This document shows positions 11,465 to 52,580 of a stretch of 64,000 bases of DNA, piece after piece. Made by a program: the position numbers and the translations under genes. The notes beneath the pieces are model-generated. The model saw nothing but the letters and a program-made list of their open reading frames with translations. It was not told where the DNA came from and did not search any database. The first letter of the stretch is position 1, and the number at the start of each line of letters is the position of its first letter. The DNA is from Eledone cirrhosa (Eukaryota): positions 89,280,001-89,344,000 of the forward strand of contig OZ024746.1 in the NCBI GenBank assembly GCA_964016885.1, written 5' to 3'.

Positions 11465-11790
11465 TTGTTATACTTGGGGAGGCTCATATTGTTGTAGTAA
11501 TATTGCCAGAAATAATAACAGAACACACTCACCGTTTGGTTGGTTTTCGCTTCTGTATCTTTTATATCTCCACAGTTAATTCATTCGGTCCTCAGTCACT
11601 GACCAACGGTCAAAAATACAGATATAATATACATATAAACACATATATCTAGTCTAACAAAGTTCTTTCGTTGCACATCTGCAACATCATCAGTGGTACT
11701 ATTATCTTGCTCCTGTTGTATTTCTATATCTACGCCATCTTTCATATTTGTTTCGACACATGATTTCATATCAAAAACCTCGCAAAACAA
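11465..11790 (-). mobile_element. Family C pLTR fragment with HHR core (11658-11695) and inverted 3' terminus
   Basis: Homologous to 38070-38400 and 51961-52245; CTGATGA-t-gttgca gatg tgcaac-GAAA on the minus strand. Confidence 0.85.
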
Positions 11791-12732
11791 TATATATATA
11801 TAAGTAACTTACATGTATTGGAACAAGATAATGCGACGTTTTCTATTTCTTAAGAATAATTATTTCAGTACAAATGTCAAATTGCACCAGCGAGGAATCA
11901 ATATGAAACAAATAAGTCATAAACATACTGGAGTAAATATATCATATACCACTCGTAGCACTCCGCCATTAAATCAATAAAATTACTCTCATTTTCAAAT
12001 GTCTATGAATTTAATATTTTTTCCGATATCCAAAGAGAAGTATGTATATATATATATACATATATTTATTTTTATATATACACTCTATATAAATATTTAT
12101 AATATTCGTCTAGAATATATTGATATTTGAAGAAATTTTATGGATAAGAAACGAAACAAACTTTTATGGATTGTAAAATATTGTGTCTAGGCGTATAAAA
12201 TTATTGATATTATTTCTGAAAGATAAATTTTATATTTCAAGGACATTAGTTTAAAAGAAATGTTAGCATATATCTATTAATTGCGGATTACCTACAACCA
12301 TTGAAGTAGGATTTCACCATACTATTTGTATATCATATTAGAACTCACTAGGACAGTTATATATAAATCAAAGCAACTTTTGATATAATAGGTAGGAACA
12401 AATATGTGGTTAAAATATCTTGATATGAAGCCACACGTTTATATGAATCAGGAATGCTTATTTTATATATCGGTTTGGTTTCAAAGAAGTATTGAGTTGA
12501 TGGTTTTACACTCATGTTTGTAAGTAGCGGTAGTCAGCAAAAAGTAAATGGAGGCTTTCTATATGGAAACTGAGCCAATCTATAATGAATCGTACACTCG
12601 TGTCATTAAAAAACCTTTCATGGCTAAGAGAAAATTGCAGATGCACTATGTAAAAGCCTGCCCTTTTTCAACCGTCAAAACTCCTAATGTCTGAGACACA
12701 CATTTACACCCCAACATTATATATATATATAT

Positions 12733-14184
12733 CCCCCTTCTTCCTGAATAGGCTGTTGGCGATGTAGAACCGTCTCGCCTCCGCCATGGTGACCAGACGC
12801 TCTCCTCTCTCATTTTGCTCTCCTAGGCCGAATCTTCCCACATACTCTTCCCCTTGCCGTCCCTGTCCGACTTTTGCGTTGAAGTCTCCCATCACGACGG
12901 TGTAAGTGGACTTCAGAGCTACCACCTTGTCTAGCTGGCGATATAATTCTTCCACTTCATCGTCGTCGCTGGCACTTGTGGGAACGTAGGTCTGGACGAT
13001 CTTAGAAAGAGTCGAATACCATCCTGCTATACAAGAAGGGCGATAGAGAAGATCTGAAGAACTACCGACCCATATGCCTGCTGTCTCACGTGTACAAGCT
13101 GTTCACGAAGATAATCCTGAAAAGGTTATCACGTCATCTGGACGAACAGCAACCGAGAGAGCAAGCCGGCTTCCGAAAGAACGACAACACGATGGACCAC
13201 ATATTTTCTCTGACACAACTGCTTAAGTGAGCGAAAGAGTACAAGATGCTTCTTTGCGTCGCGTTCGTAGACTACGAGAAGGCCTTCGAAAGCGTCGAAA
13301 TCAACGCAGTACCGAACTCGCTGCAGAGGCAAGGAGTCGAGGCGCAATAAGTTCAACTGCTCAAGGAGGCGAATTCCGGATGCACCACCGACATAGTTCT
13401 ACTGTCATCACCCGTACGAGTGCCGGTCGGGAAGGGACTGAATCAAGGAGATACGATCTCTCTAAAACTTTTCACCGCGTGTCTCGAGCAGATCATCAGA
13501 GGCATTGACTGGCAAGGCGGTGTCAACATCAACGGCGGGATACTTACCCACCTCCGTTTCGCTGATGACATCGTACTCATCGCTGAAACATTCTGACGGA
13601 GCTCGACACCAAAAGCTCTGCAGTAGGTCTCAAGATGAACCGCATGAAAACGAAGTTAATGCTGTTCGACAACGTACCAATGGTCCAATGGTGGTTGGCG
13701 GTGATGAAATAGAGGAGGTGGAGGAATACGTCTATCTAGGACAAGAAGTGAACATGCGCCGAGACATTGAGAGGGAGATCTCGCGGAGAGTAAGGCCCGG
13801 ATGGAAGGCGTTCAACGGCATAAGAGATGTGCTCAAGGAGAGGTTGGACAAGACCTCCCGCGCCAACCTCTTCAATAGCACAGTTTTACCTGCAATGTTA
13901 TATGGCAGTGAAACTTGGGCTACAACGAAGAAAGAAGAGCAGAGGCTGGTAACGGCTCAAAGAGCCATGGAGAGATCAATGCTAGGAATCTCGTTGAAAG
14001 AGCACATCAGGAGCGAATTCATCAGACAGAAGTCCGGCGTGAGGTACGTCATCACGGAATATATGCGCAGCAAGTTCAGATGGGCTGGACACGTCGCCCG
14101 GAATGGAGAGGAATGGACGGCGTACTGTGACAGGGGCGCCGAATGGACGCTCGATAGACTGGTCGGTCAAGGTGATCAAGGTGA
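12733..14184 (+). mobile_element. RTE-clade LINE, truncated, with inverted APE-endonuclease fragment (12733-13000, minus) joined to a frameshifted RT (13001-14184, plus)
   Basis: Minus: VVMGDFNAKVG, N.RGERL. Plus: FVDYEKAF, QGDTIS, LRFADD, YVYLGQ, VLPAMLYGSETW, FRWAGHVAR. Flanked by (TA)n. Confidence 0.92.
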
Positions 14185-50128: not shown

Positions 50129-51400
50129 ACTACCCGGTAATAACCAGGAAAGATGGGGTTATTCGCAGTTTTCAGAGTGCACCTAAAAATGCTAGCGACC
50201 CTGGGTGCCCACACTAGATTTTCATTAGCAAGCTTTGCTAGGTGTGTTGATGCTAGATCCATTTTTTTGTGTGAAACTATCAATAGCTGTTAACTCATAA
50301 GTCCTTTTTCCACCCATGTTTCTTCAGTGAGAGTGAATAAGGCGGGGAAGTTTGAGCTTGAAGAGTATCGAAGTTATTCAACAAACGTATGTATAAGAAT
50401 AGCAAACTTACTGCCTTAGCGTTGAAGAAGAAACACAGAACAATTGAGGAAGTCATCGCAATTATTGAAGAAATTATAACCGAGTGAACATATTCATGTA
50501 CTGTTCAAGCACCCTGTATATCACCGTTTGTAATGCCCTTCAAATGTTTGAAGGAATTCAATAAAACCATCCCGTTTTCCCCCTATAGTAGACATATCCG
50601 GAGAAAAAACACCATAATAAGTTGGATAAACAATCAGAAGTGTTGGCCCTAAAGAGGGACTTGTAACGTTCACTGTTGCAAAGTGTCAATGATGGAGGAG
50701 AAGTTACATCTTCTTAATTCGAAATATCGACAAAATAAACTCTACTCTCAAAGATTAACATGCCGGGAGTACGAATATTCGTCCACATACGATTTGTATT
50801 TTATTCTTTGGACTAATCTCATGGTAAGCTAGCTTCCAGGTCATTGATCATCACATTTCTTTGTAACTTATGACCGATTCCTGCGGTTAACATTAATGTG
50901 ACCTAAGCATGTGCATGTGTTCAGATTCCATATCAGTGGATGTGATATATATATATATATATATATATATATATATATATATATATATATATATATATAT
51001 ATATATATATATATATATACAGACATCTGTTCAGTCGTCAACCAAAATTAGATTGTCGTCTGCTTTGTTTGAAATTTCTTTATGTATATTTCTAATAAAT
51101 TGTTGCCTTGTTTTGGAGGACTGAGTTGTGGGAGGTGGAAGGGGAGTAGTGGCAGGTAGGGTTTAACATACAGTAGTAGTATCTTCTCTTCTCCCTCTCT
51201 CACTGAAACGTCTTCTCTTTCCTCCTCCATTGTAAAGATATCCCTAGGGGTTCCATTATTGAAATCCAATTGGTCAATCCTGTTTCTGAATATTAGCTTA
51301 ATATGTGTGTAAAGTTTCATCAGCATAAGATCACTGGTCTAGGCGCCAACTGGATATACACAGACACACAGACAGAAATTGCCATTTATATATATATATA
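50129..51400 (+). mobile_element. Probable non-autonomous Helitron-like element
   Basis: Starts actacccggtaataaccagg; ends tgtgtaaagtttcatc..ggtctaggcg..acagacacacagacagaaattgccatttatatata, resembling invertebrate non-autonomous rolling-circle elements. Confidence 0.45.
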
Positions 51401-51960
51401 TGGCGTCTCAATGCCTTCCACCTTTGTAGCCTGAGATGCATTTTGGATATCAAGAGGACCGACCTGGTCACCAACAGTGAAATCATATACACGCCAAGAT
51501 ACCCAGCATATATATCCTGCACAAACTGCTAGTTTTAGTGGCAGTATCAACAAGTTTATAATAAAAAGCTCTTACTTGCGAACTGATTTTGCGTGTGTGT
51601 CATTTTAACGGCCTGACCACATGCGTTAGGCAGGAAGCGAAATATTAACTTACTGTGAGACTAGCAACCTTATAGTATGGAAATAAGCTGTTTGAAGATC
51701 TAATTCTTTCCATTGGAAATTCTCTGGATTTCCAATCTTTGGATTGGTGAAACCGTCGGTAACAGCAATAGAACAGGTGATTATTTAAATCGTTTTTTAA
51801 TTTATTTAGATTATCGTTTGATAATTGGTTGCTTCGCTCTTTTTATATTGTTCTGGTATCTCAAATTAGTACCATCGAACCACAACATATTTCTATAGGG
51901 ACCTAGTGCCTGTTGAAATATTCATACCCTTTTACCTTTTATTTATATATATATATATAT

Positions 51961-52580
51961 ATTGTTATACTTGGGGAGGGTCATATTTGTGTAGTATTGC
52001 CAGAATTAATAACAGAACACACTCACTGTTTGGTTGGTTTTCGCTTCTGTGTCTTTTATATCGGTAATCTAATTTATTCGGTCCTCAATGTTGCCATTGA
52101 CTGACCAACGGTCAAAAATAATACAGATACAATATAGACACAAACACATATATATAGTTTATCAAAGTACTTTCGTTGCACATCTGCAAAATCGTCAGTG
52201 GTGCTATTGTTTCCTCCCGTTGCATTGTATTTTCTACGCCATCTTTATTTAGTCTGTTTATATATTTATTTATTTGTTTATTTTATTTTGTCTTCTTTGC
52301 GCATGCGTTTGCGTGTGTGTATAGTGTTTTGTTTGATGTGTGTTCGTGATTGGGTGACTGTGTATTGGTTAATGTATTCTATCTTTACTAGTGTGTGTTT
52401 ATATGTGTTTTGTTCTTATTGTGCTTGTGTATGTATTTATTTATTTATCTATTTATTTATTGATACTTCTCTTAGGTCAGTGTTGTTTGTTTGGGTGTTG
52501 TTTGTTTGGGTGTATAACAATATCTGTTTCGACACCACGATTTCATATAAAAAACCTCGCAAAACTAATTCATCGCCGTT
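51961..52580 (-). mobile_element. Family C pLTR with HHR (52163-52200) and inverted 3' terminus (52512-52580)
   Basis: Highly similar to 38113-38655; minus strand CTGACGA..GAAA-GTAC-TT. Confidence 0.88.

Follow-up and report, generated by a model that had tools for sequence, protein, structure and literature searches.

We analysed a 64,000-nucleotide (nt) stretch of the Eledone cirrhosa genome (GenBank assembly GCA_964016885.1, contig OZ024746.1, positions 89,280,001 to 89,344,000 of the forward strand; this whole stretch is the window, and positions below are counted from its first letter), which is AT-rich animal DNA dense in (TA)n tracts and retrotransposon relics. We analysed 13 head-to-head inserts in it, each made of two arms in opposite orientation, where one arm may carry a tail and the other, tail-less arm begins at an internal site that marks the 5' boundary of that tail. 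These inserts are probably ordinary 5'-truncated insertions of (TA)n-targeting Penelope-like elements (PLEs) that were primed, in one form or another, from both ends of the target. All copy counts and statistics refer to this one 64-kb window, a small sample. Family C has three copies here (C1, C2 and C3), marked by an 18-mer beginning ttgttatac that occurs three times (11465, 38114 and 51962) against a chance expectation of 0.07, and a search of bacterial and archaeal genomes returned 0 additional copies. Its features are as follows.

11371 to 11465, no strand assigned: (TA)47 target tract to the left of C1
11466 to 11743, minus strand: tail-less arm of C1, 278 nt, beginning at the internal site and belonging to a divergent subfamily
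11744 to 11789, plus strand: inverted tail arm of C1, followed by (TA)6
38070 to 38114, minus strand: tail of C2, 45 nt, about codons 8 to 22 of an open reading frame (ORF) start, collinear and adjoining (TA)n
38115 to 38659, minus strand: pseudo-long-terminal-repeat (pseudo-LTR) region of C2, which contains a hammerhead-like core and the opening codons of the following ORF (ATG at 38136)
38660 to 39130, minus strand: C-terminal remnant of a GIY-YIG endonuclease in translation, with a CX4CxxC linker, a CCHH-type core and one in-frame stop
51963 to 52511, minus strand: tail-less arm of C3, 549 nt, beginning at the internal site after (TA)9
52512 to 52579, plus strand: inverted tail arm of C3, 68 nt, reaching 8 nt beyond the internal site and followed by (TA)41 from 52580

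Alignments confirmed what the first-pass annotation of this DNA had claimed for family C. The copies at 11466 and 51963 begin at one internal site (ATAT at 38111-38114 in C2) and carry a 45- to 68-nt tail inverted at the far end. The body of C1 (11466-11743) is 84% identical to 38115-38402, and that of C3 (51963-52502) is 93% identical to 38115-38659 before one additional 15-bp repeat unit. In the tail arms, 11744-11788 is the reverse complement of C2 38114-38070 and 52512-52567 that of 38122-38068, with 13 more nt before (TA)41; the inverted tails of C1 and C3 reached local alignment scores of 80 and 70, whereas none of 2538 other segments compared exceeded 25. The 3' end of the C3 tail arm is thus 13 nt longer than those of C1 and C2, and these nucleotides, which have no second copy in the window, may belong to the element, judging from the reading frame. 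Beyond the ATAT held in common with the TA tract, the two arms overlap by 0 nt in C1 and by 8 nt in C3 (12 nt with ATAT included, in keeping with the overlap of about 10 bp reported earlier for this copy). The copy at 38070, described as collinear, is so only to about 39130, where it is 5'-truncated and joined to an unrelated tandem element, G.

The similar layout claimed for a second family, E, was likewise found.

32008 to 32182, minus strand: tail-less arm of E1 (homology to 32143; 32144-32182 is an unassigned hairpin)
32183 to 32270, plus strand: inverted tail arm of E1, with an 18-nt overlap (homology to 32246)
59297 to 59440, minus strand: E2, a single tail-less arm at the internal site of the family
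63733 to 63870, plus strand: E3, a collinear tail-bearing copy, the reference for the family

When 32183-32200 is reverse-complemented, it agrees with 32008-32025 in 17 of 18 nt, with a perfect stretch of 16 nt. The E1 body aligns with 59298-59440 and the E1 tail arm with 63766-63824, the latter at a score of 47 compared with a maximum of 30 elsewhere. A 1-nt and a 3-nt insertion occur in both arms of E1 and are absent from E2 and E3, and no inverted tail was found at the far end of E2. Family E showed no coding domains and, in a motif scan, no hammerhead; its TA targeting and two-end pattern suggest a PLE origin. The geometry of these copies is the one of twin priming that had been read from them before, in that the upstream piece is inverted and its start lies close to the 5' end of the 3' piece.

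Three further families complete the inserts on which the argument draws.

9095 to 9147, plus strand: solo H tail between two TA tracts, stopping at the internal site
10416 to 11369, no strand assigned: H head-to-head insert, with a 754-nt tail-less arm and a tail arm running about 142 nt past the internal site
39130 to 40439, no strand assigned: G head-to-head insert, built of a 571-bp tandem unit and joined to C2 at the 5' end of the latter
9627 to 9833, no strand assigned: D1, a palindrome with head-to-head arms and an 80-nt tail at its left side only
29817 to 30006, no strand assigned: D2, also a palindrome, with a 79-nt tail at its left side only and a 6-nt centre from the tail-less arm
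31452 to 31635, no strand assigned: D3, also a palindrome, with a 79-nt tail at its right side only and a 5-nt centre from the tail-less arm

Of the 13 inserts, four are asymmetric, the long arm measuring 278 nt in C1, 549 nt in C3, 175 nt in E1 and 754 nt in H. Another eight form palindromes whose arms span 50-149 nt and which have additional sequence on one side only; the remaining one is G, whose left end has been replaced. Seven inserts have centres of 1-13 nt at their palindromic junctions, and the unpaired centres of D2 and D3 are element sequence only when read in the direction of the tail-less arm. A second copy confirms the tail in families C, E, D and H, and exactly one side is tailed in all seven head-to-head inserts with such a tail (C1, C3, E1, H and D1-D3); the putative tails of families M, N, L, I and J occur once each in the window and may instead be flanking host DNA. 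At 59297 and 21467, single-arm copies stop at the internal site of their own family, without inversion. Three older inverted matches (34744-34976, 31727-31935 and 45562-45824) were kept outside all counts, being too decayed or having unclear TA-bounded ends. G and H are made of tandem units, 571 bp in G and 439 bp in H, that are non-coding and have PLE-like ends; a motif scan found no hammerhead core in either. G ends at (TA)24 at 40440. Its right arm comprises one unit and continues for 17 nt beyond the next start site, and its long inverted arms are 96-97% identical. The fusion of G with C2 has about 5 nt of microhomology and could reflect either a template switch between families or insertion of C2 into G with a 244-nt deletion.

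Family C itself appears to be the 3' end of a Neptune-like PLE with the pseudo-LTR and tail arrangement, because its CX4CxxC linker and C-terminal endonuclease fit the definition of the Neptune clade, in which a C-terminal endonuclease is preceded by a CX2-5CxxC linker (Craig 2021, PMC8557442; here and below, statements on published systems refer to the accessible portions of the papers cited). The linker precedes the endonuclease, and the ORF stops after it and is followed by the pseudo-LTR. A full protein scan gave 1016 homologues of the endonuclease at E≤0.001, the best being an uncharacterized protein of Octopus bimaculoides at 55% identity, and 92 of 150 homologues among the matches listed had the GIY-YIG/CCHH motif. 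The reverse transcriptase part of family C is truncated away in the window; upstream of the endonuclease, 7 of 15 long homologues have a Y/F-x-DD motif, and an RVT_1 match, itself weak, was seen in 1 of 9 homologues scanned. Pfam returned no match for the remnant, and a word-index protein search returned no longer relatives, which the full scan did yield. The Naiad clade, with its N-terminal endonuclease, was considered and ruled out, as the family C endonuclease precedes the stop and the pseudo-LTR. The frame opened by the ATG at 38136 is intact in all three copies and continues through the 45-nt tail, and by analogy with Pen2a of A. vaga, in which 12 codons lie in the pseudo-LTR and the tail extends them to 22 (Arkhipova 2013, PMC3846280), this ATG is probably the true ORF start. 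A motif scan located a hammerhead-like CTGANGA..GAAA core with a 6-bp stem II at 38351 (C2) and 11693 (C1), which had no Rfam hammerhead match and folds no better than shuffles. Penelope-like elements have been reported in O. vulgaris (PMC13282606).

Judged on sequence comparison, C1 and C3 are separate insertions, and a single rearranged master is rejected because C2 and C3 agree against C1 at 29 body sites while C1 and C3 agree against C2 at only 5 (C1 and C2 agree against C3 at 6), because the flanks of C1 and C3 are unrelated (alignment scores of 17-30, the background level) and because the two copies differ in truncation point, junction overlap and tail end. Descent of both from one master or a segmental duplication would account for their common left breakpoint and for the 5 sites at which they side against C2, but given the 29 sites and the differing ends and flanks its probability is close to negligible. 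The recurrence that the first-pass annotation saw in these two inverted copies therefore stands. Its cause appears to be another one than the self-complementarity of the TA target that had been proposed: the internal breakpoint recurs because it coincides with the tail boundary already known in PLEs, where reverse transcription has a second, fixed start (Frangieh 2024, PMC11167929), and the PLE studied in vitro primed without homology. In that study, purified PAc (Poseidon, Anolis) protein cut and extended both target strands and used two start sites that delimit the tail. The layout described here can thus be seen as a limiting case of a known PLE insertion structure, and its shared breakpoint is largely explained by published work.

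To assess TA sequence at the start sites, we counted the perfect-TA-tract bases that also fit the element at the tail-less end and compared these with simulated junctions at every element position. In the five families whose downstream sequence is confirmed, internal sites matched by 4 nt (C), 0 or 5 nt (E), 2 or 3 nt (D), 2 nt (H) and 5 nt (G), so that the sum was 13 against 5.2 expected under conservative anchoring (p=0.024) and 19 under liberal anchoring (p=0.0008); without C and E, the values were p=0.02 and 0.01. A test of ten families (p=0.004 conservative, 1e-5 liberal) was set aside as the main test because the tails of M, N, L, I and J may be host flank, which would make the TA match circular. 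The TA bias at internal sites is real but modest, and it does not separate pairing of the primer from endonuclease cutting at TA. The TA match that had been proposed for both cut ends was seen at internal sites and not above chance at tail ends (below).

Among the forms of both-end priming we tentatively favour priming on a single RNA, that is, true twin priming, to which we give slightly less than even odds overall. A GIY-YIG endonuclease would nick both strands of the (TA)n target, as another PLE does in vitro, and one 3' end would begin reverse transcription at the internal site while the other would begin at the 3' end of the tail; use of these two sites can be read from the inserts, and the chemistry is presumed. 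The TA primer may pair with a TA-like patch of 2-5 nt at the internal site, as the statistics above suggest. One RNA would serve both starts, and the downstream enzyme would collide with the first complementary DNA (cDNA), either halting within 0-18 nt (C1, C3, E1 and perhaps G) or displacing it and continuing (H and the palindromic inserts). The two cDNA ends would then be joined head-to-head, which the 2-6 nt junction matches suggest: as raw counts, apparent microhomology at the inversion junction is 6 nt in C1 (11744-11749), 2 nt in C3 and 3 nt in G, with none evident in D2 and no value assignable in E1.

In C1, C3 and E1 each arm is without the sequence of the other, so that each would need its own template-primed start. 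Including D2 and D3, at least five inserts from three families require two primed starts, if later deletion and a cut-and-flip of the intermediate are set aside. The presence of a tail on exactly one side in all seven inserts with a confirmed tail also supports priming from both ends. That the two starts share one RNA is less sure; in its favour are the overlaps of 0, 8 and 18 nt, the end of the G arm at +17 nt, the solo H tail and the indels shared by the E1 arms. When length scales from 300 down to 50 nt were assumed, the shortness of the overlaps in the four asymmetric inserts gave a combined p of 0.004-0.09.

Several results weigh against this TA-primed, single-RNA reading. The conservative TA sum without G falls to p=0.12, the TA match of E1 is 0 when its own tail arm serves as reference, and the tail ends match TA by just 1-3 nt, not above chance (p 0.12-0.18); moreover, an anole PLE primed where the site was not homologous to the cut DNA (Frangieh 2024, PMC11167929). 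An unconditional test of short overlap, made with hand-entered approximate arm lengths, gave binomial p of 0.03-0.7 and a Fisher p of 0.096, and the overlap in H is about 142 nt. In H, the tail arm agrees at 10 columns with the other tandem unit and at 3 with the unit that a single RNA predicts; the 10 columns collapse to about three events, which makes them close to uninformative, and unit assignment in G (7, 1 and 3 private sites) does not discriminate between models. The putative tail arm of N extends at least 10 nt further 5' than its tail-less arm. Palindromic arms are all 50-149 nt and asymmetric long arms 175-754 nt, which also fits the collapse of long palindromes, and target-site duplications are unreadable within (TA)n.

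Alternatively, each of the two starts could have used an RNA of its own, both RNAs being bound by a dimeric protein, and the tail arm would then be a second cDNA, independently and severely 5'-truncated; we regard this as somewhat unlikely. In its favour, the PAc protein is predicted to form a dimer and extends both strands in vitro (Frangieh 2024, PMC11167929), an inverted 5'-truncated copy beside the element has been described (Craig 2021, PMC8557442), short cDNAs are frequent in the window, and large duplications do occur (about 142 nt in H, and the eight palindromic inserts); such a process leaves it unaccounted for that in three of the four asymmetric inserts the tail arm reaches 0-18 nt beyond the internal site, against 175-549 nt for its partner, and that the E1 arms have common private indels, though a shared subfamily also accounts for the latter. 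A different history, quite unlikely in our judgement, starts from long symmetric palindromes, most of one arm being deleted later. Long palindromes are unstable. This would fit the restriction of palindromes to arms of ≤149 nt, with all four longer inserts asymmetric, and the hairpin base would fall at the internal site; yet the tail arm is the short one in four of four cases, no deletion enters the tail, and G retains its long inverted arms.

Two further explanations were weighed. In one, improbable on present evidence, a single collinear cDNA forms and the intermediate is cut by the element's own endonuclease at the TA-like internal site, after which the body is joined again in the opposite orientation; this predicts a fixed TA-like breakpoint and small overlaps and agrees with the attribution of the tail to endonuclease resolution of an intermediate (Craig 2021, PMC8557442) and with the tail requirement of the D. 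virilis endonuclease for recognition (cited in Frangieh 2024, PMC11167929). Reverse-transcription starts, however, were mapped directly at both tail boundaries (Frangieh 2024, PMC11167929), tail-less single arms occur (E2 and I2), and duplications of 50-150 nt are left unexplained. In the other, self-priming or fold-back of one strand, as proposed for head-to-head Penelope repeats (Arkhipova 2013, PMC3846280), would yield palindrome centres of 1-13 nt such as those of seven inserts and is possible for I1, J, L, M and N. Simple fold-back cannot give C1, C3 and E1, whose arms hold different sequence, and the centres of D2 and D3 are oriented the wrong way, since they belong to the tail-less arm, which excludes fold-back of a tail-bearing cDNA; for the inserts as a set it is very improbable. 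Returning to twin priming on one RNA, it is conceivable, if doubtful, that this is the normal mode of PLE integration, with the two tail-flanking sites loaded on one RNA and TA pairing fixing the internal one. If so, the extent to which the first cDNA is displaced would set whether a solo tail, a flipped tail, a partial inverted repeat or a full palindrome results, and this would replace self-priming and endonuclease resolution as the account of PLE inverted repeats and one-sided tails.

The second start site is fixed per family here, unlike the internal priming sites of L1, which are scattered. L1 twin priming is reportedly due to Ostertag and Kazazian (2001), as described in Kojima 2010. In its published form, one target end anneals to the RNA 3' terminus and the other internally to the same RNA, with microhomologies at the ends and the junction (PMC2912911). 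The inserts resemble this in having a non-inverted 3' piece and an inverted upstream piece that begins near its 5' end (overlaps of 0, 8 and 18 nt) and in the microhomology at the internal priming site (4 nt in C, and the five-family test), and they differ in coming from PLEs with a GIY-YIG endonuclease, without poly(A) priming and with unreadable target-site duplications. Like canonical endonuclease-bearing (EN+) PLEs (PMC8557442, PMC3846280), they show an inverted 5'-truncated copy head-to-head, a tail at one end, (TA)n targets, a hammerhead-like pseudo-LTR motif and a tail that extends the first ORF codons (12 to 22 in Pen2a, about 8 to 22 here). The inverted piece here, in contrast, can be the tail plus 0-18 nt, with almost no inverted repeat, and the tails are 45-90 nt rather than 30-40; where those papers invoke endonuclease resolution or self-priming, we invoke two primers.

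Similarity to PAc extends to two starts that delimit the tail, cutting and extension of both strands and AT-rich targets, and the internal site of family C, on the 3' edge of a hairpin predicted at 38108-38125 (minus strand; 7 bp, AACA loop), recalls the AC-rich stem-loop of PAc, whereas PAc primes without homology to the cut DNA and internal sites here match TA by 2-5 nt. A general rule of start sites in hairpin loops was dropped, as the loop context was seen in 2 of 8 families (C and H). The non-coding tandem units of G and H are reminiscent of non-LTR retrozymes, which are non-autonomous PLE derivatives (bioRxiv 10.64898/2026.07.22.740005), but without a hammerhead core in the motif scan they fall outside that definition.

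Our literature search, which covered few subscription papers, found no published account of twin priming in PLEs. In their accessible text, Craig 2021 and Arkhipova 2013 do not contain the word "twin" and Frangieh 2024 has it only in a tag name; that of Frangieh 2024 (PMC11167929) does not discuss inverted insertions, which the alignments of its Fig. S2 might show, and the accessible portions of studies on L1 rearrangements (bioRxiv 10.1101/2024.12.14.628481) and on retrozymes (bioRxiv 10.64898/2026.07.22.740005) hold nothing on PLE inversions. Apparently unpublished are therefore the barely overlapping arms (0-18 nt, three inserts), the two palindrome centres derived from the tail-less arm and the above-chance match of internal sites to the (TA)n target. 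The origin of tandem and inverted PLE ends is an open question according to Craig 2021 (PMC8557442), and the steps after priming are unvalidated in Frangieh 2024 (PMC11167929). The barely overlapping arms are the informative class, in that they exclude fold-back and link the two-site start seen in vitro to a genomic product, and with 13 head-to-head inserts in 64 kb this genome should be dense enough to separate one-RNA from two-RNA models by counting.

PLE relics of this shape risk being mis-annotated as miniature inverted-repeat elements or microRNA-like hairpins. The palindromic inserts J, I1 and L (31288-31434, 32315-32450 and 40489-40731) have hammerhead-like cores, found by motif scan in J and by eye in I1 and L, and two cases in this group drew sub-threshold Rfam microRNA matches and could be mis-annotated; at E≤1 the Rfam scan returned 122 matches, of which nearly all were to microRNA families, none was to a hammerhead and none attained its gathering score. 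Inserts also form chains within each other's TA tracts (O-H-C1 at 10274-11801, J-D3 at 31288-31663 and O-E1-I1 at 31866-32468), in which every insertion supplies new targets for the following one. Unique segments of 49-81 nt flanked by TA tracts (22338-22407, 47132-47212, 53175-53223 and 63910-63976) are candidate solo tails of families without another copy.

The window holds other retroelements as well. A second, nearly complete PLE frame lies at 790-3000 (plus strand), with reverse-transcriptase and endonuclease motifs and stops in six-frame translation and no Pfam match. A third PLE at 40877-44917 (minus strand) has a reverse transcriptase and an asparagine-rich stretch before a C-terminal GIY-YIG domain (a weak Pfam match). 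Its ends are direct repeats of 90 nt (40877-40966 and 44828-44917), and the element lies between (TA)n tracts and shows no inversion. Two 650-bp copies (4641-5288 and 55946-56576, 79% identity) end at (TA)n, and their ends resemble 40952-41111, so that they are probably another PLE 3' end. At 60571-62643 (minus strand) stands an element of the long-interspersed-element (LINE) type, whose open frame of 691 amino acids has RVT_1 and an embedded PHD finger in Pfam. A dispersed family of 150-180 bp (16480-16707, 21193-21374, 26448-26628, 48859-49573 and 53570-53783; 74-90% identity) is unrelated to the PLE ends and resembles short interspersed elements by size alone. A GAACAAG-based minisatellite and a 112-bp tandem repeat occupy 33132-33527 and 60163-60420.

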